A DNA stretch of 64,000 nucleotides from a virus (taxonomy: Duplodnaviria > Heunggongvirae > Uroviricota > Caudoviricetes): IMG/VR virus record IMGVR_UViG_3300020723_000003. One strand, written 5' to 3'. The notes under the pieces are model-generated. The model worked only from the letters and a program-made list of their open reading frames with translations. It did no database searches and had not been told where the DNA came from. Below, piece after piece: positions 1,996 through 53,590 of this stretch. A program made the position numbers and the translations under genes. Every line of letters begins with the position of its first letter. Position 1 is the stretch's first letter.

Positions 1996-3414
1996 TCAGA
2001 AGAAATCTTCAATACCATTTAATTCAAATGATTTTTTTAACCATGGATGATGTTTTTCTAACCATTCATCACCTTGATCGCCTTTGGATTTTAAATAATC
2101 ATACCACTCTTTTGCTCTAGCATAATCGTGATGTTTGTCTTCAGAGTCAGCCCACATTCCTGGACTTATTCCATTCCAACGGTTTCTTTGTTCTGGATGA
2201 TCTTTGTTTAATCTTCTTGATTCAACAAATATTCTTCTTTCTTGTTCATACTCAAAAGAACCTAATTCAGCCATAGATTCATGAGTAAATGCAATTATTG
2301 ATAATCTTTCTGCATCAGGATCCTCAAGAACAATTGGTGTATTTCCATGTAAACCAACAGTATTTAAAACTAATAATAAATCTCTTGGTCTAACATTTAC
2401 AGCATAACCAATTTCAGGGAATGTTAGATAACCACCAGAAAACTTATCATTATTGCTCATGACACATAAATTTGCCATCCCTAATTCCATATTCTTGGCG
2501 TCATGATGTGCTGCAGTTCTAAAATTACGATTCACAGTTACTGTTGTAAATGGAGTTCCTGGAACTCGAAATTTAGAATCAATTTTTTCTGCTACTTCCA
2601 TTTGATTACTAAATCTCCATGGAAGTAATTCTTTAAATCCTTTAGATAAGGATTGTAAAAATGGATATGCTAATGCAAATTCTTCTGGATTATCTCTGGT
2701 ATAAGATGTTGCTCTACCATATGGAATTCTTGGATATCTTGAATACCAACCAGAAATGCCACTATTAACAACATTAGCATAAGTTGTATCGCTAATATAA
2801 TTATCTAAAATATCTTGTGCTTTCTTTTTTGCAATATCTACCTCTTCGTCACACAATGAATTTGCAAAATCATCAAATATAAAATTATTTGCTTTGATTT
2901 TTTCGGTCAACCAAACAACACCCCTACTCTCATCAGATTTTAATGTTTTATATTTCTCTCTAATTATATTAATTTCTTTTCTTGGATTTCTTTCTCCAAA
3001 AATATCAGAAATATTATTTTTTAAAAAATGTTCAAGAATATCGAATTGCTCATCTGTAACCCATTCTCTTCCGCCACATGTACCTGTTCTTGGTCCACCA
3101 GCAATACCTCTATTTTGAGTTTCAACTGCTGCTTCTCGTAATCCAGCATAAGCTGAATCAGCTTCTTCTTGTGTAAAGAAGTTTTTACGGAATTTAAAAA
3201 CAATATTTTTTTCGTTCAACCCCTTTCCACAATGCCCACAATCCATATTTTTTTCACAATTTTCTTCAGCTGTGAAATCAGCACAATCTGGTGGTAAATA
3301 TATATCACAATCTTCTTCTATCAATGTATGATAATGTGAATCATCTAACCATTGACCTATTAAATCTGGTCTTGGTATAACTTCTTCAGGTTTTAATACA
3401 ATTACTTTTGTCAT
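1996..3414 (-). CDS. 2OG-Fe(II) oxygenase domain protein with N-terminal Cys-rich region
   Basis: C-terminal HHD ... about 60 aa ... HGNTPIV ... RLS is consistent with the HxD...H facial triad plus RxS 2-oxoglutarate-binding motif. N-terminal CxxC pairs (MDCGHCGKG). Confidence 0.45.
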   Translation of the reverse strand: MTKVIVLKPEEVIPRPDLIGQWLDDSHYHTLIEEDCDIYLPPDCADFTAEENCEKNMDCGHCGKGLNEKNIVFKFRKNFFTQEEADSAYAGLREAAVETQNRGIAGGPRTGTCGGREWVTDEQFDILEHFLKNNISDIFGERNPRKEINIIREKYKTLKSDESRGVVWLTEKIKANNFIFDDFANSLCDEEVDIAKKKAQDILDNYISDTTYANVVNSGISGWYSRYPRIPYGRATSYTRDNPEEFALAYPFLQSLSKGFKELLPWRFSNQMEVAEKIDSKFRVPGTPFTTVTVNRNFRTAAHHDAKNMELGMANLCVMSNNDKFSGGYLTFPEIGYAVNVRPRDLLLVLNTVGLHGNTPIVLEDPDAERLSIIAFTHESMAELGSFEYEQERRIFVESRRLNKDHPEQRNRWNGISPGMWADSEDKHHDYARAKEWYDYLKSKGDQGDEWLEKHHPWLKKSFELNGIEDFF

Positions 3415-3528
3415 TTTTTGATCCTATTAATATTAATACTCATAGTTTACTATACTTTTTAAATAAAGTAAAGCGCTTTTTGTTATTTAGAAAAATATAA
3501 ATATAGTAATAAAACAAAGGAACTTAAA

Positions 3529-4533: not shown

Positions 4534-6038
4534 TGATAGAAGTACATAAAATAAACGAATCCTTTGTTATCCTTAAATGCGATAGAGGAATAGCCCAAGA
4601 ATTATCTGAATATTTTTCGTTTCTAGTTCCTGGTTACAAATATATGCCTGCATTTAAAAATAAAATGTGGGATGGAAAATTAAGATTAGCTAAACTTCTT
4701 CCAAATGGTGATGTTGAATTTTATGTCGGATTAATTAACCAACTAGAAATATTTTGTTCGGACAGAGAATATTCCCTAATTAAAAATTATGATGATCGTT
4801 TGAATTTAATTTCATCAGAAGAATTACAATGCTTTATTGAAAAATTAAATATACATTCTTACGGAAAACGTATTGAAGTTAGAGATTATCAATTTGAATG
4901 TGTGTTAGATTTTTTAAATACGAAAAGAATGGTAGGATTAAGTCCAACCAGTTCTGGAAAGAGTCTGATTCTTTATATTATAATACGCTATTTAATACAA
5001 AATACTTGTAAAAAAACATTATTAATTGTACCAAATGTATCATTATGCCACCAATTAGCCTCAGATTTTGTAGATTATGCATCACACAATAAATGGGATT
5101 CTGATAATCATATACATCTAGTGTTTTCCGGAAAAGATAAAGATGCTGATAAAGAAATAATTTTATCTACATGGCAATCTTTATATACCATAAAAGATAA
5201 AAATTACTTTAAACAATTTGATCTTGTTATTTGTGATGAAGCGCATCTTTCTTCAGGAAAAGAAATAACTACTATAATAGAAAAGTGTATTAATGCTGAA
5301 TATAGAATTGGTGTAACTGGTACTCTAAATGGTCAAAAAATACATTCATTGCAGTTAGAATCATTATTTGGTCCAGTAAAAAAAGTTATTACAACAAAAG
5401 AATTAATGGATAATAATCAAGTAACAAATTTAGCCATTAAATGTATTGTATTAAAGTATCCAGAAGAAATAACAAAACTTACCCAAAATTTAAAATACCA
5501 AGAAGAATTAGATTTTATTATATCAAATAAAGAAAGAAATAAATTTATTAAAAATCTAACTTTATCTCTTAAAGGAAATACATTATTGTTGTATCAATTC
5601 GTAGAAAAGCATGGAGATGTGTTATATAACCTTATTTCTAATTCGAAATTTGCACAAGATAAAATTGTATACTATATACATGGAGATATAAAAGCGGAAG
5701 AAAGGGAATCTATAAGAAAGGCGATGGAGACTCAAAATAATGTTATTCTAATAGGTTCTGTTGGTACTGTTTCTACTGGAACAAATATTAAAAACTTACA
5801 CAACATTATTTTTGCAAGTCCAAGCAAATCAAGAGTTAGAAATCTCCAAGCAATTGGAAGGGTTCTTCGACTTAATGAGAATAAGGATAAAGCTATCCTT
5901 TATGATTTAGCAGACGATCTGAGGTATAAAAAGCATCAAAATTATACTATTCTTCATTTTAAAGAAAGAATTAAAATTTACAATGAAGAAAAATTTAATT
6001 ATAAATTGATTAATATTGATCTAGATCAGACCCTATAG
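4533..6038 (+). CDS. uvsW: UvsW DNA/RNA helicase (SF2)
   Basis: Walker A SPTSSGKS, DEAH box VICDEAH, helicase C motifs. Synteny after uvsY. Confidence 0.85.
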   Translation: MIEVHKINESFVILKCDRGIAQELSEYFSFLVPGYKYMPAFKNKMWDGKLRLAKLLPNGDVEFYVGLINQLEIFCSDREYSLIKNYDDRLNLISSEELQCFIEKLNIHSYGKRIEVRDYQFECVLDFLNTKRMVGLSPTSSGKSLILYIIIRYLIQNTCKKTLLIVPNVSLCHQLASDFVDYASHNKWDSDNHIHLVFSGKDKDADKEIILSTWQSLYTIKDKNYFKQFDLVICDEAHLSSGKEITTIIEKCINAEYRIGVTGTLNGQKIHSLQLESLFGPVKKVITTKELMDNNQVTNLAIKCIVLKYPEEITKLTQNLKYQEELDFIISNKERNKFIKNLTLSLKGNTLLLYQFVEKHGDVLYNLISNSKFAQDKIVYYIHGDIKAEERESIRKAMETQNNVILIGSVGTVSTGTNIKNLHNIIFASPSKSRVRNLQAIGRVLRLNENKDKAILYDLADDLRYKKHQNYTILHFKERIKIYNEEKFNYKLINIDLDQTL

Positions 6039-19195: not shown

Positions 19196-21742
19196 ATGGA
19201 AAGTGAAGGTTCTTCCTTCTACACAAATGTAAGAGTTATTGGAAATAATATTTGTTATAGGGGTGTTGATGACTCGGGCCAACAGATCAGATTTAAATAT
19301 GAATATAGCCCAAAGGTTTATGTTCCTTCTAATAAACAATCGAATTTTAAAACTTTGGATGGAAAGTATGTAGATGAAATTGAACCTGGATGTATCAAAG
19401 AAACAAGAGATTTCATAAAACGATATGAAGAAGTTGATAATTTCGATATTTATGGTGATATTGGATTTGATGTACAATACATTTCAGATAAGTTCCAATC
19501 TAATGTAGATTGGGATATAAATAAAATTTCAATTCATATCTTAGATATTGAAACTGCTTCTGAAAATGTAAATGCTGTGTCTCATAAATTAACAGCACCA
19601 GAAGAAATTCTTTTAATTTCTATGACTGAATTGTCTACAAAAAAAGTCACAACATTCACATCAAGAGATTACAATGGGACAAATGATGATAATGCTGAAA
19701 TTATTTTATGCCAAGATGAGTATTCGTTATTAAATCAATTTCTTGATCATTGGAATCGTATTGGTATTGATATCGTTTCTGGTTGGAATATTGATGGTTT
19801 TGATATACCATATTTGATTAATAGAATATCGAATGTTATGGGAGATGATCATGCTAAACGATTAAGTCCATGGAAAATGGTTTCTTCTAGAAAAATAAAA
19901 GGTAAGTTTGGTAAAGATGATATTGTTTATGATATTGCTGGAGTTAGTTGTTTGGATTTTATGCAACTATATCTCAAATTTACATATGTTAAAAGAGAAA
20001 TGTATTCTTTAGATTATATTTGTCAAGTTGAATTGGGTAAAGGTAAATTAGATCATAGTGAATTTGCTACATTTAAAGAATTTTACACTAAAGGATTTGA
20101 TAAGTTCATTGATTATAACATCATTGATACGATTCGAGTTATTGAACTTGAAGAGAAATTAAAGTTAATTGAACTTTGTTTAACAATGTCATATTTGGCA
20201 AAAATAAATTATAATGATGTATTCTCACAAATTAGAATGTGGGATTCAATCATTTATAATCATTTAAAACATCAGAACATTGTAATACCTAAAAAAGCAT
20301 CTGGTTCTAAATCAGAACAATTTGAAGGCGCATTTGTAAAAGAACCAGTTCCTGGATTATACAATTGGGTTGTTAGTTTTGATGCAACTTCACTTTATCC
20401 TAGTATTATGCAGACATGGAATATTTCTCCAGAAACTTATATGGGTGTTGATACATCAATTTCTGTATCTGGGTTAATGGGTAAGAAATGTGAGATATCA
20501 GAAGAATATGCTACTGCTGCTAATGGAGCTATGTATAAAAGAGATAAGAAAGGGTTGCTTCCAGAACTTATTGATATTTACATGGCAAAAAGAAGATCTG
20601 CTAAAAATAGTATGATTGAAGCAGAAAAACAGTTGGAAAAATTAAAGAAAATTAAATTTGATTCTGATATTGATGAACAAAAAGAATACAAACGTCTTGT
20701 TAATGAAATATCTAAATTTAATAATGAACAAATGGCGTTTAAAATTGGTCTTAATAGTCTCTATGGGGCGATTGGAAATGCTTACTGTAGGTATTTTGAA
20801 TTAGAAAATGCAAGAGCTATTACTTTGACTGGACAATATATAATTAAAACGGTCGGTGAAGGATTGAATAGAGATCTTAGTAAATTATTTAAAATTGATG
20901 ATTACGATTGGTCTTTTTATTCTGATACAGATTCTTGTTATGTTTCTTTGGAACCTATGGTAAATAAGTTTTATAAGGATTTGTCTGATGAAAAACTTGT
21001 CAATCTTATTGATAAGATTTCTAAAGAAAAAATAACACCTATTATTAATGATAATTGTTTAGACCTTCAAACATATACAAATTCTTATAGAAATATGATT
21101 TCTTTTAAACAAGAGGGTATTTCTAGTAATGGCATTTGGGTTGCTAAAAAACGTTATTTTTTGAATGTTCTTGATAATGAAGGGGTAAGGTATGCTTCTC
21201 CAAAATTAAAAGTTATGGGTTTAGAAGTTGTAAAATCTTCAACTCCAGGTGTTGTAAGGGAGAAATTAAAGACGTGTTTATCTTTAATTCTTGATAACAA
21301 AGAAGATGATTTACAAAATTTTATTGAGGATTTTAGATTAGAATTTAAATCTCTTCCTGTTGAAGATATTGCATCTCCAAGAGGAGTTAATGGTATTGAA
21401 AAATATTCTAATTCCACTACGGTGTATAATTCTGGGTGTCCTTTGCATACAAAAGGTGCAATTATTTACAATAAAAAATTAAGGGAATTAAAGTTGGATA
21501 ATACTTATCCTATTGTTGGTGAAGGTGATAGAATTAAATATACATATTTAAAATCGCCAAACCCAATTAAAGATATTGTTATTGGATTTCCCTCTGAACT
21601 TCCAAAAGAATTTAAACTTGAAAATTATATCGATTATGATAAACAATTTGAAAAAACATTTTTAGAACCAATAAAATCTATCCTTCAAATATTAGATTGG
21701 ACAACTGAAAAAACCAATTCTATTGAAGACTTTTTTTCTTAA
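19196..21742 (+). CDS. 43: DNA polymerase gp43 (family B)
   Basis: 848 aa. Exo motifs (ILDIETAS; YNIIDT), pol motifs (SLYPSIM; KIGLNSLYG; YSDTDSCYV). Synteny regA-43-uvsX. Confidence 0.9.
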   Translation: MESEGSSFYTNVRVIGNNICYRGVDDSGQQIRFKYEYSPKVYVPSNKQSNFKTLDGKYVDEIEPGCIKETRDFIKRYEEVDNFDIYGDIGFDVQYISDKFQSNVDWDINKISIHILDIETASENVNAVSHKLTAPEEILLISMTELSTKKVTTFTSRDYNGTNDDNAEIILCQDEYSLLNQFLDHWNRIGIDIVSGWNIDGFDIPYLINRISNVMGDDHAKRLSPWKMVSSRKIKGKFGKDDIVYDIAGVSCLDFMQLYLKFTYVKREMYSLDYICQVELGKGKLDHSEFATFKEFYTKGFDKFIDYNIIDTIRVIELEEKLKLIELCLTMSYLAKINYNDVFSQIRMWDSIIYNHLKHQNIVIPKKASGSKSEQFEGAFVKEPVPGLYNWVVSFDATSLYPSIMQTWNISPETYMGVDTSISVSGLMGKKCEISEEYATAANGAMYKRDKKGLLPELIDIYMAKRRSAKNSMIEAEKQLEKLKKIKFDSDIDEQKEYKRLVNEISKFNNEQMAFKIGLNSLYGAIGNAYCRYFELENARAITLTGQYIIKTVGEGLNRDLSKLFKIDDYDWSFYSDTDSCYVSLEPMVNKFYKDLSDEKLVNLIDKISKEKITPIINDNCLDLQTYTNSYRNMISFKQEGISSNGIWVAKKRYFLNVLDNEGVRYASPKLKVMGLEVVKSSTPGVVREKLKTCLSLILDNKEDDLQNFIEDFRLEFKSLPVEDIASPRGVNGIEKYSNSTTVYNSGCPLHTKGAIIYNKKLRELKLDNTYPIVGEGDRIKYTYLKSPNPIKDIVIGFPSELPKEFKLENYIDYDKQFEKTFLEPIKSILQILDWTTEKTNSIEDFFS

Positions 21743-21756
21743 TTAAAGGAAATATT

Positions 21757-22665
21757 ATGAGTTTACTTGAAAAACTTAAAAAAAATTCAACGATAAAAGA
21801 ATCATCTATTTTATCTGTATCAAAATTTTTTACTAAAAAGGATATGATAACAACTCCAATTCCTGCGTTTAATGTTGCATTATCAGGCAGATTGGATGGC
21901 GGATTAACTCCAGGACTTTCATTATTTTGTGGTCCTAGTAAACATTTTAAAAGCCTTTTTTGTTTGATTTTAGCTAAAGCATATATGGATAAATATCCAG
22001 AATCTGTATTAGTATTTTATGATTGCGAATTTGGTACACCCGAAGCGTATTTTGATTCATTAGGTATGGATAAAGATAGAATTCTCCATACCCCAATTAT
22101 GAATATGGAAGAGTTTAAATTTGATATTATTAATCACCTTCAAAATATTACTAGAGGCGACAAAGTAATATTTGTTGTTGATTCTTTAGGAAATATGGCT
22201 AGTAAAAAAGAAACTGATGATGCTATTGATGGTAAATCTGTTGCTGATATGACTCGTGCAAAATCTATGAAATCTATGTTTCGTATGATTACACCATATC
22301 TAGTTAAATATGATATTCCTATGGTAGCAGTAAATCATATCTATATGACTCAGGAAATGTTCAGTAAACCAGTCGTTAGCGGGGGTTGTGTTGTAGCAGG
22401 CACTAAAATTCAAATGTTTGATAGATCGTTAAAATCTATTGAGGATATTACACCTGGATGTTTGGTTAAAACTCAAGATGGTCCTAAAATTGTTACACAT
22501 AGTTGGAACCCAGAGACACTTTTAGATGGAAATCCAGAATGTTATAAAATTACATTTGAAGATGGTTACTCTGTAATTTGCTCTGATGAACACCCATTTC
22601 TTAAAAATTCAGAATTTGTATCGGCAAAGGAACTTAGTATTGGAGATGATATAACAACATTGTGA
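21757..22665 (+). CDS. uvsX: UvsX recombinase N-terminal extein (aa 1-210) fused to an N-terminal split-intein half (91 aa)
   Basis: RecA-like N-part ends ...KPVVSGG. It then switches at Cys (22387) to a Hint N-domain (CVVAGTKIQMFDRSLKSIEDITPGCLVKTQDG...CSDEHPFL...) and stops at 22663. Confidence 0.85.
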   Translation: MSLLEKLKKNSTIKESSILSVSKFFTKKDMITTPIPAFNVALSGRLDGGLTPGLSLFCGPSKHFKSLFCLILAKAYMDKYPESVLVFYDCEFGTPEAYFDSLGMDKDRILHTPIMNMEEFKFDIINHLQNITRGDKVIFVVDSLGNMASKKETDDAIDGKSVADMTRAKSMKSMFRMITPYLVKYDIPMVAVNHIYMTQEMFSKPVVSGGCVVAGTKIQMFDRSLKSIEDITPGCLVKTQDGPKIVTHSWNPETLLDGNPECYKITFEDGYSVICSDEHPFLKNSEFVSAKELSIGDDITTL

Positions 22666-22702
22666 AATACAAAAAGTGGAAAAAAATATATTTGATACTG
22701 TT

Positions 22703-22834
22703 ATGGATAAAGATGTTTGGGCAACAACATCATCATTTCAAAAACGTGAAATTTGCATATATTGTGGGAAAGAAAGTGTGGTCGGTAATATTAAACGCTG
22801 GCATAATGATAATTGTAAAGAGAAAAAAATATGA
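22703..22834 (+). CDS. Mini-ORF encoding a zinc-finger-like peptide between the intein halves
   Basis: 43 codons in a different frame from the uvsX halves (MDKDVWATTSSFQKREICIYCGKESVVGNIKRWHNDNCKEKKI; CxxC...HxxxC). Its stop overlaps the ATG of the downstream half (ATATGA). Confidence 0.3.
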   Translation: MDKDVWATTSSFQKREICIYCGKESVVGNIKRWHNDNCKEKKI

Positions 22835-23388
22835 AAATTGTTAATATAGAAAAAGTTGGTAAAAGAAACGTATTTGATATAACTGTTGCTGATAATCATC
22901 AATATGTACTAGAAAATGGTGTTATCACACATAATACTGGTGTTTATCTTTCTGCTGATAATATTTACATCTTGGGCAGACAACAAGAAAAAGAAGGTAC
23001 TGATGTTGTTGGGTATAATTTTATTATAAATGTTGAAAAATCAAGACATGTTCGTGAAAAATCAAAAATACCAATTACTGTAAAATATGAAGGCGGTTTA
23101 AGTTCTTGGTCAGGTTTAATTGATATGGCTCTAGAATCAGGACATGTTGTAAAACCATCTAATGGTTGGTATTCGCGAGTTAATACTGCGACAGGCGAGG
23201 TTGAAGAAAAGAAATATCGCCTTAAAGATACAGATACAAAGGACTTCTGGAATAAAATATTATTAGATAAAACTTTTCAAGATTGGATTAAATCTAATTA
23301 TCAAGTATCTCATGGAAATATTTTAGCTTCAGATAAAGATATAGAACAAACATTTGCAGAAATTGGGGATGATGATGAAGAATTATAA
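22831..23388 (+). CDS. uvsX: C-terminal split-intein half (35 aa) fused to the UvsX C-terminal extein
   Basis: Own ATG and RBS. MKIVNIEKVGKRNVFDITVADNHQYVLENGVITHN (intein block F/G ending HN), then TGVYLSADNIYILGRQQ..., which aligns to T4 UvsX TGVMYSADTVFIIGKRQ right after SGG. Confidence 0.85.
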   Translation: MKIVNIEKVGKRNVFDITVADNHQYVLENGVITHNTGVYLSADNIYILGRQQEKEGTDVVGYNFIINVEKSRHVREKSKIPITVKYEGGLSSWSGLIDMALESGHVVKPSNGWYSRVNTATGEVEEKKYRLKDTDTKDFWNKILLDKTFQDWIKSNYQVSHGNILASDKDIEQTFAEIGDDDEEL

Positions 23389-23572
23389 AAATTGTGCTGA
23401 ATTGACAGGAGCAATATTTGCAATTTGTCTTATTGTTGTATTATTATCAGCATGGATAACTCATGTTGTTGTTTGTATTAAAACTGCATCTTGGGGTTTT
23501 TTGATTGCTGGTGCTATTGCATTTCCTGTTGCATGGGTTCATGGAATTGGATATTGGTTTAATATTTGGTAG
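23354..23572 (+). CDS. Small hydrophobic (2-TM) protein
   Basis: 72-aa ORF with two predicted TM helices. Confidence 0.35.
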   Translation: MQKLGMMMKNYKNCAELTGAIFAICLIVVLLSAWITHVVVCIKTASWGFLIAGAIAFPVAWVHGIGYWFNIW

Positions 23573-23581
23573 GAGAAAATA

Positions 23582-23920
23582 ATGCTTGACTATAAAGAGG
23601 AAATAGATTATACTTTCATTGAGGCTAATGGTGCTGCTGGTATAAAGATTATTAGTGGTAATTTTGAAGATGTAATTTATACATATTCTCGTGTTTCAAT
23701 ATCAGAAGCAAAAGATGATGTTACAGATGAAGATCTTCCGGCAATGTTGAGTTTTAATTATGATATTGTTGATTCGTCTGGTTACACTGAAGAAGAGTTT
23801 CAGACAATTGAATTTAAAACTAAAATTGGTGATATTTTAATGTCAATTTTAGCAAAAAGTGCGGAGAATACTATTGAACTTGAACAAACTGATTCTAAAG
23901 AATCTGCAATATTGGGATGA
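23582..23920 (+). CDS. Hypothetical acidic protein
   Basis: 112-aa ORF. Overlaps the g41 start by about 60 nt. Confidence 0.4.
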   Translation: MLDYKEEIDYTFIEANGAAGIKIISGNFEDVIYTYSRVSISEAKDDVTDEDLPAMLSFNYDIVDSSGYTEEEFQTIEFKTKIGDILMSILAKSAENTIELEQTDSKESAILG

Positions 23921-50278: not shown

Positions 50279-51277
50279 ATGGTTATGGGAATAAGAATAC
50301 TAACTCCTAAAACAATTTATACAACGGATTATCCTACTGCTATAGAATTTGCAGAAAAACAAGCTGAGGTATTTTGGCTTCCTACTGAAATTGAAGTAGA
50401 AAAAGATCTTCATGAGTTAAAAACAAATTTTACTGAAGCAGAATATCATGGTGTTATTTCAACATTAAAATTATTCACTCTTTATGAATTAAATGTTGGA
50501 AATGATTATTGGCAAAATTATATTTCTAAAGTTTTTCCGAGACCAGATATTCAAAGAATGGCTGCAACATTTTCTTTTATGGAATTGGGTGTTCATGCAC
50601 CATTCTATAATAAAATTAATGAAGTTCTTGGTTTAGATAATGATGAGTTCTATACTGATTATTTAAATGATGAAGTTCTTGCAAATAGAATGGCTTGGAT
50701 AGGTAAACGAACTGAGAAAAGAAATACTGTTTATGACGTATTAAAATCAGTTGGTATTTTCTCTATGATTGAAGGTGCAATTCTTTATTCAAGTTTTGCT
50801 TTCTTGAAACATTTCAATTCTGCAGGTAAAAATAAATTAGTAGCTATTAATGCTGGAATCAATTTCTCTGCGATTGATGAAACTTTACATTCACAAGCTG
50901 GCGGTTGGTTATTTAGAACATTATTAAAAGAAGCTAAAGAAGATGGTCAAGTAACAGATATATTTGTTGAAGAATTAATTCGAGAACTTGAAGAAACTGC
51001 TAAAGTGATATTAGAACACGAATCAATAATTATTGATAAAATATTTGAGAAAGGTCAAATTAAAGGTATTACTGAAAATCAATTGAAACGGTTTGTTGAA
51101 TCTAGATTAGATATTTGTTTAGAAAATCTTGGATATAAAGGAATTTTTAAACCAACGTATAATCCGATTAAATCTTGGTTCTATAAAGATCTAGAATCTT
51201 CTACGTTGCACGACTTTTTTTCGTCGCAAGGTTCTGATTATAATAGAAATTGGATTGAAAATAAATTTAAATGGTAA
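50279..51277 (+). CDS. nrdB: Ribonucleotide reductase small subunit NrdB (class Ia)
   Basis: Di-iron and Tyr-radical regions (MELGVHAPFY; SAIDETLHSQAG). 332 aa. Upstream of nrdA. Confidence 0.8.
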   Translation: MVMGIRILTPKTIYTTDYPTAIEFAEKQAEVFWLPTEIEVEKDLHELKTNFTEAEYHGVISTLKLFTLYELNVGNDYWQNYISKVFPRPDIQRMAATFSFMELGVHAPFYNKINEVLGLDNDEFYTDYLNDEVLANRMAWIGKRTEKRNTVYDVLKSVGIFSMIEGAILYSSFAFLKHFNSAGKNKLVAINAGINFSAIDETLHSQAGGWLFRTLLKEAKEDGQVTDIFVEELIRELEETAKVILEHESIIIDKIFEKGQIKGITENQLKRFVESRLDICLENLGYKGIFKPTYNPIKSWFYKDLESSTLHDFFSSQGSDYNRNWIENKFKW

Positions 51278-52419
51278 CTGAAATGAAAGAATTATCAATA
51301 TACGACGAATTAGGTGAAGAAAGAAAAAAATTGCAAGGTGAAGGTAAATTACCAATGTGGTGTTCGACTATTGCATGGCAAATGCTTAAAGAAAATTATC
51401 TTTCTGAAAAATATCCTGATTTAAAATCAGTATATACACGTGTAGCTAAACATGCTGCGCAATATACTACAAATCCTGATGAATGGGAACAAAAATTCTT
51501 TGATCTATTCTGGAAAGGATATTTGGCAGCTTCAACTCCTGTATTGTCTAATATGGGAACAGGATTTGGTTGTTCTGTAAGTTGTTCAGGCGGATATATC
51601 AATGATTCAGTTTATGATTTCTATGATGCACAAAAAGAAGCTGCAGTTCTATCAAAAAATGGTTTTGGTACATCAGGCTATCTTGGTGCAATTAGACCAA
51701 GAGGTTCTAAAATTTTTGGAATGAAAGGTAGTGCTTCTGGTGTCCTTCCAGTATTCAAAGATTTTATACAAATGTCTAGAGATATTTCTCAAGGTTCACA
51801 AAGACGAGGTGCTTGGGCTGGGTATCTTGAAATTGATCATGATGATTTTTATGAATTGGTAAATTATATCGGTAAGAATCCTGACGATGCAAATATTGGA
51901 TGGATTATCACAAAAAACTTTATTGATAGATTAGATGCTGGTGATAATGATGCAATTTCTAGATATCAAAAAGCGTTAAAGTTGAAAATGATTACTGGAA
52001 AGGGTTATTTCATTAAAATTGATGCTATTAATGAACAAAATCCACAAATGTATAAAGATAAAGGTTTATCTGTAAAAGCATCAAATTTGTGTTTAACTGG
52101 TGATACTAGAATTAATATTAAAGGTGATATTAGTGGCGAACTACAAGTATCAATGGAAGGGTTAAATAATTATTTAGGTAAAAATGATGATGTAGAAAAT
52201 TGGAAGGTTTGGTCATATAACACAGAAACTAACATGAGCGAATGGAAAAAAATTATAAAATCTGCACAAACATCAATATCGACTAAGATAATGAATATTA
52301 CAGACGAAATAACTGGAAAATCTATAAAATGTACGCCAGATCATAAGATTTTTACCGAGAACCGTGGATATGTTTGTGCAAAAGATTTAATGGAAAATGA
52401 TGTATTATTATTAAAATAG
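51271..52419 (+). CDS. nrdA: NrdA N-terminal extein fused to an N-terminal split-intein half
   Basis: RNR large-subunit sequence up to the active-site ...KASNL. It then switches to CLTGDTRINIKGD... (Hint N-domain, about 98 aa) and stops with TAG. Confidence 0.85.
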   Translation: MVTEMKELSIYDELGEERKKLQGEGKLPMWCSTIAWQMLKENYLSEKYPDLKSVYTRVAKHAAQYTTNPDEWEQKFFDLFWKGYLAASTPVLSNMGTGFGCSVSCSGGYINDSVYDFYDAQKEAAVLSKNGFGTSGYLGAIRPRGSKIFGMKGSASGVLPVFKDFIQMSRDISQGSQRRGAWAGYLEIDHDDFYELVNYIGKNPDDANIGWIITKNFIDRLDAGDNDAISRYQKALKLKMITGKGYFIKIDAINEQNPQMYKDKGLSVKASNLCLTGDTRINIKGDISGELQVSMEGLNNYLGKNDDVENWKVWSYNTETNMSEWKKIIKSAQTSISTKIMNITDEITGKSIKCTPDHKIFTENRGYVCAKDLMENDVLLLK

Positions 52420-52594
52420 TTTTGTGTACTGAAATATGACGAAAATATTCCTAGTTCATTTGGCGGAACTTATAGAGAAAATATTACTACTAAAAAGATT
52501 CAAAAATTACTTATAGATAAGTTTGGTGCAATTGATAAACAGTTGGGTTCATATGCTAAACACCATACAAATAAAATAAAAGAGGAAATTGAAA

Positions 52595-53590
52595 ATGAGT
52601 TTAAAAATTGAGTATTTAGAAAATGAAGAAGCGGTATATGATATATCTGTAGAAGATAACCACAATTTTTTTGCTAATGGTATATTAGTACATAATTGCA
52701 CGGAAATCACATTATTTTCTGATGAGGATCATACATTTTCTTGTGTTCTTTCATCTATGAATGCGTCTCTTTATGATGAATGGAAAGATACAGATGCTGT
52801 GTTTAATGCTACAGTATTCTTGGATTGCGTCAATCAAGATCTAATTGAAATTGGTAAAAACACTAAGGGAATGGAAAGGGTTGTTAGATTTGCTGAAAAA
52901 TCAAGAGCATTGGGATTAGGTCTTCTTGGTTTTCATACTTATCTTCAAGATCATTTAATTGCTTTTGAATCTTTAGAAGCTAATTTTAAAAATGTAGAAA
53001 TATTTAAACATCTTGATGCAGAATCAAAACGTGCTTCTGAATGGATGGCTAAAGAATTTGGTGAACCTGAATGGTGTAAAGGGTATGGAGTAAGAAATAC
53101 CCATAGAATTGCAGTGGCACCAAATCTTTCTTCTGCGTTAATCTGTGGTTCTGTGAGTCAAGGTATTGAACCTATCTATAAAAATGCTTATGTTCAAAAT
53201 ACAGCAGCAGGAAAAATGGATAGGGTTAATCCTTCATTATTAACGTTGATGAAAAAAATAAATGTATATTCAGAAGAAACTGTTAAAGATATTATTTCTA
53301 ATAATGGTTCTGTTCAGCATGTAGATTGGTTAACAGATGAAGAAAAAATAGTATTTAAAACTGCTTTTGAAATTAATCAGCATAGTATAATTAGATTGGC
53401 TTCTACAAGACAAAAATATATTGACCAAGCTCAATCTATAAATCTTTTCTTCTCTGCTGATGAAGATGAAGAATATATTTCAGAAGTCCATAAAGCTGCC
53501 TTTAAAGATCCTTATATTAAATCGTTGTATTATATTAGATCTGAAACTGGGGTTAATGTTTCAAAAGAGTGTCTGAGTTGTCATGGTTGA
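52595..53590 (+). CDS. nrdA: C-terminal split-intein half fused to the NrdA C-terminal extein
   Basis: AAGAGGA RBS. MSLKIEYLENEEAVYDISVEDNHNFFANGILVHN then CTEITLFS..., which restores the SNLCTEI active-site motif. Different reading frame from the N-half. Confidence 0.85.
   Translation: MSLKIEYLENEEAVYDISVEDNHNFFANGILVHNCTEITLFSDEDHTFSCVLSSMNASLYDEWKDTDAVFNATVFLDCVNQDLIEIGKNTKGMERVVRFAEKSRALGLGLLGFHTYLQDHLIAFESLEANFKNVEIFKHLDAESKRASEWMAKEFGEPEWCKGYGVRNTHRIAVAPNLSSALICGSVSQGIEPIYKNAYVQNTAAGKMDRVNPSLLTLMKKINVYSEETVKDIISNNGSVQHVDWLTDEEKIVFKTAFEINQHSIIRLASTRQKYIDQAQSINLFFSADEDEEYISEVHKAAFKDPYIKSLYYIRSETGVNVSKECLSCHG

Follow-up and report, generated by a model that had tools for sequence, protein, structure and literature searches.

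The uvsX recombinase gene of a Caudoviricetes virus (IMG/VR virus record IMGVR_UViG_3300020723_000003) is divided between two open reading frames (ORFs). It is very probable that this is a fractured gene carrying a split intein of the gp41-1 class, that the homing-endonuclease gene (HEG) between the intein halves has decayed to a tail, and that UvsX is made by predicted protein trans-splicing. The DNA analyzed here, called the window, is the whole stretch of 64,000 nucleotides, and the locus lies at positions 21757 to 23388. The upstream ORF (N-ORF) encodes the 5′ part of uvsX and the N-terminal intein segment (IntN), and the downstream ORF (C-ORF) encodes the C-terminal intein segment (IntC) and the 3′ part of uvsX. 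No second uvsX was found in the 64-kb window. When 20 kb around the locus was compared with GenBank phages by megablast, no close relative was found. Thus, the phage itself, which is AT-rich and T4-like, is known from metagenomes only. Other loci are referred to below by L numbers.

A split intein in the uvsX gene

The N-ORF has an upstream Shine-Dalgarno (SD) sequence, AAGGA. It reads through ...KPVVSGG into CVVAGTKIQMFD...CSDEHPFL...SIGDDITTL and then stops; the Cys codon at 22387 is TGT. The C-ORF begins with MKIVNIEKVGKRNVFDITVADNHQYVLENGVITHN from an ATG at 22831, with the sequence AAAGAG 8 nt before the ATG, and UvsX then resumes as TGVYLSADNIYILGR (TGVYLSADN). The two ORFs share one frame (1074 nt apart). 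Read-through of the N-ORF stop was considered and excluded by the 10 same-frame stop codons across the gap.

The presence of a canonical (gp41-1/DnaE-type) split intein in uvsX is supported by several similarity searches. In a search against solved structures, the fused IntN and IntC sequence matched the gp41-1 split intein 6qaz best (E=1.7e-9), and the alignment crosses the IntN/IntC junction. A profile of 14 family sequences found 6qaz at E=2.5e-12 together with about 40 other solved inteins, including DnaX, Npu DnaE, and the Mtu RecA mini-intein. Tako8, which was also among the matches of the profile in the PDB, was set aside as an artefact, made up of eight weak repeats of a designed protein. 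The model TIGR01443 (intein_Cterm) matches the C-ORF with 26.4 bits and passes its curated cut-off of 15.6, and in the split-DnaE model PRK07373 it is the IntC portion (positions 2-36) that residues 1-35 of the C-ORF match. Pfam and PHROGs place RecA/UvsX parts on both ORFs and weak intein matches at their inner ends, and PHROGs holds separate families for the two uvsX halves.

It was found that Cys1, Ser66 and His69 of block B, Asp108 of block F, His126, Asn127, and Thr+1 (T128) are invariant in 14 family members, which are 47-77% identical to the window intein. The block B motif is CSDEH, in which Ser stands where Thr is more usual in (T/S)xxH. The C-terminal splice end is ...VITHN/T at 22921..22938 (a slash denotes the junction here and below), a His-Asn pair followed by Thr+1. 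The ratio of nonsynonymous to synonymous substitution rates (dN/dS) of the intein halves is 0.15-0.33 against seven diverged homologues; dS is saturated for two more. From the conserved catalytic residues and these ratios, protein trans-splicing of the UvsX halves is strongly inferred. IntN has a net charge of -7 and the first 14 residues of IntC have +3, which is weak supportive evidence for complementarity of the halves. Electrostatic pairing has been described for split-intein halves (PMC2677866), and the charges of the two segments fit this.

Contiguous relatives (L101, L129, and others) bridge the IntN/IntC split point. The split lies between blocks B and F, where canonical splits are found; that it coincides with the native split of gp41-1 is my reading, 6qaz being a fused chain.

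The joined exteins align colinearly to T4 UvsX (3io5; E=4e-109) without a gap at the junction, where TQEMFSKPVVSGG/TGVYLSAD of the window stands opposite TQEMFSKTVMGGG/TGPMYSAD of T4. The C-extein matches Pfam T4_UVSX_C with E=4.9e-18. Two intein-less IMG/VR uvsX alleles (L014 and L015), whose N-extein is 86% identical, have a precise empty site, ...GGCGGG/ACTGGT.... The intein is absent also from about 55 other IMG/VR uvsX loci. The SGG/TG insertion point is the end of the L2 DNA-binding loop of the RecA family.

The initial annotation, made by a model from the sequence alone, had described uvsX as two ORFs joined only via split-intein halves, and the ORFs, the gp41-1 match, and the colinear exteins bear this out. 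Its comparison with DnaE-type natural split inteins also holds, with gp41-1 as the best match among known split inteins. As it stated, the C-ORF has its own ribosome-binding-site-like sequence and ATG, and a 35-residue IntC ending in His-Asn before Thr+1. It correctly placed the Hint N-part between SGG and TG with its Cys at 22387, but gave a length of 91 residues instead of 92. Two other figures need correction: the gap is 165 nt (22666..22830) instead of 166, and the spliced UvsX would have 360 residues instead of about 390. The coordinates are collected in Table 1.

Table 1. Coordinates of the features of the fractured uvsX locus in the window
Feature	Position	Strand	Description and evidence
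N-ORF, uvsX 5′ part and IntN	21757..22665	+	302 aa; ORF list and raw sequence
C-ORF, IntC and uvsX 3′ part	22831..23388	+	185 aa; ORF list and raw sequence
uvsX N-extein	21757..22386	+	UvsX residues 1-210, ending ...KPVVSGG; Pfam RecA, PHROG UvsX-like recombinase, colinearity with T4 UvsX 3io5
IntN	22387..22665	+	92 codons, Cys1 at 22387, block B CSDEH, TGA stop 22663..22665; gp41-1 match, family profile
Deletion junction	22662..22668	+	Sole surviving copy of the 7-bp direct repeat GTGAAAT; alignment with L085
Spacer between intein halves	22666..22830	+	165 nt; former HEG 3′ end from 22669 on
HEG remnant ORF	22676..22834	+	CCHC zinc-finger tail CIYCGKESVVGNIKRWHNDNCKEKKI; 51/52 match to the L004 HEG C-terminus
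SD-like AAAGAG for the C-ORF	22817..22822	+	Inside HEG tail codons (C-K-E-K); sequence
IntC	22831..22935	+	35 codons, MKIVNIEKVGKRNVFDITVADNHQYVLENGVITHN; TIGR01443, PRK07373, gp41-1 alignment
uvsX C-extein	22936..23388	+	Thr+1, TGVYLSADN..., 150 codons and stop, UvsX residues 211-360; Pfam T4_UVSX_C, T4 UvsX colinearity

Other inteins were noticed around the same region. Two more split-intein sites, each with its own HEG, exist in the L2 region of uvsX (L021/L047, around 4586..5770; L024/L025). At one of them IntC ends with SHN/TQEMYSKPVVSGG, 13 residues upstream of the site in the window, and the HEG is of the HNH type. At the other it ends with AHN/SMYPKAIVSGG, and the gap has a 375-aa ORF. 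In L063-L065, an intein-less uvsX is followed after about 2.2 kb by a gene with an IntN-like sequence of 30-32% identity to the IntN of the window (for example, L064 6219..6479); this sequence is probably an intein in a gp41-type helicase.

Decay of the homing-endonuclease gene

The gap contains a mini-ORF of 43 codons from an ATG at 22703, or of 52 codons from a GTG at 22676, with the motif CIYC...HNDNC. Its TGA (22832..22834) overlaps the ATG of the C-ORF (ATGA). The mini-ORF was demonstrated to be what is left of a GIY-YIG HEG of 282-292 amino acids, namely its last 52 codons. The gap of the L004 locus is 919 bp long, flanked by IntN (98%) and IntC (97%), and encodes a protein of this length, whose C-terminus matches the mini-ORF in 51 of 52 residues at the same position. 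This L004 protein (292 aa) has a GIY-YIG-type N-terminus, NUMOD3 (E=1e-7), and PHROG homing-endonuclease matches. The mini-ORF clusters at >=90% with HEGs of 282-285 aa, and its own PHROG homing-endonuclease match is weak. The GIY-YIG domain and NUMOD3 are absent from it, since both fall in 754 bp of deleted DNA; the CCHC tail alone has been retained. Thus, no free-standing HEG lies between the halves in the window, while L167 and L004 carry one. A homologous tail, again with CxxC...RWHxDNCK and the ATGA overlap, ends the HEG of Vibrio phage EniLVp02.

The deletions were mapped by comparison with sister alleles. The window sequence 22662..22900 is identical to L004 3327..3565 at 236 of 239 positions, and by DNA alignment the window equals L004 minus 754 bp. 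L085 and L086 are the same phage as the window, with 4 differences in 6162 flanking positions. Their gap is 561 bp and has a 98-aa GIY-YIG fragment and the 52-aa tail. Compared with L004, L085 lacks 358 bp. Another 396 bp, bordered in L085 by the direct repeat GTGAAAT, are missing from the window. In L167, the downstream phage genes are identical to those of the window at 3499 of 3521 nt, and the HEG is full (285 aa). Full, once-deleted, and twice-deleted HEG alleles coexist in one phage lineage, which shows that the HEG decayed stepwise and rules out an assembly artefact.

The initial annotation had suspected an endonuclease remnant in the mini-ORF, and the match to the L004 HEG tail and the base-mapped junctions confirm it. 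The 43 codons and the zinc-finger motif were correctly noted; the mini-ORF is in the second frame used at the locus and not in a third one, since the N-ORF and the C-ORF share a frame.

The tail is found on other nucleases as well. HNH HEGs (L008, L009, L092, L099, and others) and GIY-YIG HEGs (L003 and L004) in the same uvsX intein gap have a common C-terminal module, ...WVNPRK...CxxC...GN(L/I)KRWHNDNCK(R/E)K. This suggests that nuclease domains may have been shuffled onto one DNA-binding tail. The HEG in the uvsX gap of Vibrio phage vB_VmeM-32 (L002, KU160494.1; 2784..3306) is broken too. It has a 133-aa GIY-YIG fragment and the zinc-finger tail in different frames, and the upstream DNA polymerase gene is annotated in two pieces.

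Expression across the gap

A scan of 21400..23700 for sigma-70 promoters and terminators gave counts at background and nothing in the gap. The T4 late-promoter motif TATAAATA lies directly after IntN in L004, L008, L009, and L018 and is absent from the gap of the window. Since it was lost by deletion, the halves are probably co-transcribed. The counterpart of the AAAGAG of the window is AAAGGA in the sequence TGT-AAA-AGG-AAA of L008, L009, and L163. Because the SD sequence of IntC lies inside the HEG tail codons, at least the last ~20 nt of the HEG survive even in the 23-nt gap of L163.

The remaining frame has a 60-codon ORF at 22662..22844, whose GTG overlaps the IntN stop (GTGA) and which ends 13 nt past the ATG of IntC. 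The same frame is open inside the intact L004 HEG too (3324..3509). This ORF possibly arose by chance in an AT-rich region, and it is possibly relevant to translational coupling. It is rather unlikely that the retained 3′ segment of the HEG has been co-opted as a bridge that couples translation of the C-half to that of the N-half and sets the stoichiometry of the splicing partners. The features that could serve such coupling are the zinc-finger frame, which terminates with ATGA at the start of IntC, the 60-codon frame created by the deletion, and the SD sequence in the C-K-E-K codons.

Mobility and distribution of the element

The window and L004 have 60-75% nucleotide identity through the DNA polymerase gene, the uvsX exteins, and the helicase gene. 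Over 22381..22940, the window and L004 are 98-100% identical with 8 mismatches, and this identity is lost within 6 nt of either end of the intein. Such breakpoints define the mobile unit as exactly IntN, the HEG, and IntC. The pattern indicates that the intein-HEG unit was exchanged recently by homing between divergent phages, almost without co-conversion of the exteins.

Is this element rare, as the initial annotation implied? It is not: at least 178 IMG/VR contigs encode relatives of the window IntN, and many cultured T4-like phages in GenBank have the fractured gene, unrecognized there. Cultured Straboviridae in which a HEG-bearing fractured uvsX is the sole uvsX place in the record are Proteus phages Pm5461 and PM2, Yersinia phage TG1, Escherichia phage HY03, Salmonella phage pSe_SNUABM_01, Shewanella phage Thanatos-1, Pseudomonas phage PspYZU05, and Vibrio phages VmeM-32 and EniLVp02. 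The gaps were classified over 78 loci with both halves located. A contiguous mini-intein was found in 9 loci. In 48 loci the intein is split by a gap of >=570 bp, in most cases with an ORF of HEG size, GIY-YIG or HNH where a motif was recognized; these ORFs often carry the same zinc-finger tail. The remaining 21 loci have a gap of 23-324 bp without an intact HEG. Fragments of one or the other HEG end are recognizable in several of these short gaps, a pattern that resembles neutral decay more than selection for the zinc finger.

L129 (2780..2840) and L137 (2780..3566) form a natural pair of a contiguous and a split intein. Their IntN DNA has no mismatch over 2483..2806, in contrast to 39 mismatches in the adjacent extein. 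What L137 has in addition to L129 is a 726-nt HNH-HEG cassette in front of GAGGAAATTATG. These bases encode E-E-I-M in the contiguous L129, and in the split L137 they provide the SD sequence and ATG of IntC as well as the last HEG codons. Contiguous members such as L129 have an in-frame GAGGAAATT-ATG at the split point. The family may interconvert between contiguous and split forms in both directions, and the L129-type members may be re-fused former split inteins.

Alternative explanations

Several points weigh against a working split intein in the window. The N-terminal intein models TIGR01445 and Pfam Intein_splicing match below their curated cut-offs. A single-sequence AlphaFold2 model of the fused intein had a predicted local distance difference test (pLDDT) score of 35 and gives no information on the fold; the Hint fold is supported by the sequence homology to solved inteins. 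The deletion took away the late-promoter-like sequence that follows IntN in L004, so expression of the C-half depends on read-through transcription and a weak SD sequence (AAAGAG). UvsX is not strictly essential in T4, and T4 uvsX mutants are viable; since it is dispensable there, the viability of phages with a fractured uvsX does not by itself prove function. Translation of the C-ORF and trans-splicing are read from the sequence. A rival reading is a fractured uvsX without splicing, either a pseudogene in decay or two UvsX parts that the intein halves keep in a non-covalent complex, in the manner of the NrdA of phage Aeh1, which is split by mobE and works without an intein. In its favor, the element has outlived its selfish phase in this lineage, as the decay of the HEG shows, and functional split genes without inteins are cited by Dassa et al. 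2009 (PMC2677866). I nevertheless consider this quite improbable. The catalytic residues are all invariant in members down to 47% identity, the dN/dS of the intein is low, and both ORFs are intact. The insertion lies in the L2 loop motif that binds DNA, and 127 additional residues there would probably be disruptive. In addition, gp41-1, the closest solved relative, has been reported among the fastest trans-splicing inteins (PMC13014065).

The mini-ORF might instead be a selected small zinc-finger protein or a translational-coupling device, for which I see only a small chance. Its ATGA overlap with the C-ORF has been preserved, JGI gene calling lists the 52-aa ORF, and 3′ remnants of the HEG with CxxC...RWHxDNC recur beside IntC in independent HEG-less loci (L091, L093, L125, L136, and L155); L163 retains just the final codons of the tail. 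On the other hand, no SD sequence precedes GTG 22676 or ATG 22703. The remnants elsewhere are decaying: L125 has lost the first Cys, L093 the start codon, and L136 is truncated at RWHN. Nothing recognizable of the HEG is left in the HEG-less L088, L097, L115, L127, and L133, and 5′ remnants occur as well (L085 and L153). The consistently kept part is the last ~20 nt alone, that is, the SD sequence of IntC, as seen in L163. The remnant in the window is too young for a selection test, with 3 differences in 156 nt from L004. A bias toward retention of the HEG 3′ end was thus dropped as a firm proof of selection, since 5′ remnants and remnant-free gaps exist. Most likely, the mini-ORF is a pseudogene fragment that has no function.

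Could the split itself be an assembly or sequencing artefact, with a continuous intein or an intact HEG at the true locus? Contiguous inteins exist in the family and sister alleles have longer gaps, so that mis-assembly of mixed alleles is conceivable in principle. However, the ENA contig L084 shows no difference from the window in 6558 nt, and an exact-protein look-up found the C-ORF protein in the ENA, JGI, and Logan collections, in 59 blocks. Since the alleles are reproduced in independent ENA, JGI, and Logan assemblies, the split is not an assembly error, against which the initial annotation had cautioned. The deletion junction is a clean 7-bp microhomology, the N-ORF frame is closed by stops across the gap, and independently sequenced cultured phages are split at the same place. 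The artefact thus has hardly any probability left and is already effectively refuted. It is next to impossible that the interruption acts at the RNA level, as a group I intron or as a translational bypass of the kind found in T4 gene 60. T4-like phages do have group I introns and one bypass element. An Rfam scan of 21500..23600, however, found no family at E<=1 except a chance snoRNA match outside the gap, and all additional coding sequence flanking the gap is explained by the intein halves.

Comparison with known split inteins

The fractured uvsX fits the architecture described by Dassa et al. 2009 (PMC2677866); it is a clear new example and not a categorically new system. The fractured genes in that study are gp41, NrdJ, NrdA, and IMPDH, and UvsX appears there as a neighbouring gene only (PMC2677866). 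A search of the accessible literature for a canonical split intein in uvsX found no description, and that study alone surfaced. The gp41-1 and gp41-8 helicase loci (PMC2677866; 6QAZ) likewise consist of a host half with IntN, a free-standing HEG, and IntC with the other host half in T4-like phages. Their host gene is gp41; here it is uvsX, with Thr+1 and the HEG cut to a 52-codon tail. The gp41-7 locus, which is without an endonuclease (PMC2677866), resembles the window in having the two split-intein halves next to each other and a gap without a functional HEG. In contrast, the loss at uvsX was traced stepwise through sister alleles and mapped deletion junctions.

The cyanobacterial DnaE inteins (Npu and Ssp) have the canonical split position, and the window IntC matches PRK07373 and the Npu DnaE structures. 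They have Cys+1 instead of Thr+1. The genes for the two DnaE halves lie at distant places on the chromosome, while the halves in the window are 165 nt apart and probably co-transcribed. Mycobacterial RecA inteins and the Pho RadA intein also reside in hosts of the RecA/RadA superfamily and gave weak profile matches, but they are contiguous and only distantly related in sequence. They are at other insertion sites. Inteins with atypical splits from Lake Vida have reportedly been catalogued in UvsX genes. VidaL (6vgv) is, like the present one, a metagenome-derived split intein with marginal similarity (E=0.26 for the single sequence and 1e-4 for the profile). Its split is atypical, with an IntN of 16 aa (PMC13014065) compared with 92 aa in the window.

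In phage Aeh1, insertion of mobE fractures nrdA (PMC2677866), an essential phage gene, but the NrdA halves have no intein. The uvsX gene is a known target of the T4 HEG SegA (PMC2988022), although segA lies beside uvsX and not inside it.

The ribonucleotide reductase (RNR) large-subunit gene in the window is also fractured, into ORFs 51271..52419 and 52589..53590. The N-part ends with ...KASNL/CLTGDTRINIKGD...DVLLLK and a stop, and the C-part is MKMSLKIEYLENEEAVYDISVEDNHNFFANGILVHN/CTEITLF.... The fused RNR intein matches the NrdJ-1 split intein 8ubs (E=1.5e-17), and the gap of 169 nt has no ORF of HEG size. This second fractured gene resembles NrdJ-1; its intein family and host gene are different, and it is separate from the uvsX element.

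Proposed history and significance

The favored explanation, a fractured uvsX whose product is restored by trans-splicing, would have the following history. A mini-intein of the gp41-1 class probably settled at the conserved L2-loop motif (S/G)GG/TG of UvsX, as its family suggests. A free-standing HEG with GIY-YIG, NUMOD3, and zinc-finger parts would then have split it at the canonical site into an IntN of 92 aa and an IntC of 35 aa, again judging from the family. The later steps are shown by the comparisons above. The intein-HEG unit reached this phage lineage recently via homing. The HEG then decayed in two deletions, of 358 bp and next of 396 bp between the 7-bp GTGAAAT repeats, leaving a 52-codon tail whose extreme 3′ end doubles as the SD sequence of the IntC ORF. 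For expression, the prediction is one transcript for both ORFs and a separate translation of each. The acidic IntN would pair with the basic N-terminus of IntC, the halves would trans-splice via Cys1, Asn127, and Thr+1, and the product would be a 360-aa UvsX with the junction ...VVSGG-TGVYLS....

With this locus, the UvsX recombinase would join the host genes of canonical split inteins, in an arrangement that is unannotated in many GenBank phage genomes. A single insertion site presents a full series: the empty site, a contiguous mini-intein, a split intein with a GIY-YIG or HNH HEG, a split intein with a part-deleted HEG, and a HEG-less split intein. One phage lineage is polymorphic for three of these states, with the deletion junctions mapped to the base. 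The series gives direct sequence-level support for gene-breaking and homing-cycle models. The pool of gp41-1-like split inteins with a Thr+1 junction may also provide tools for protein engineering.

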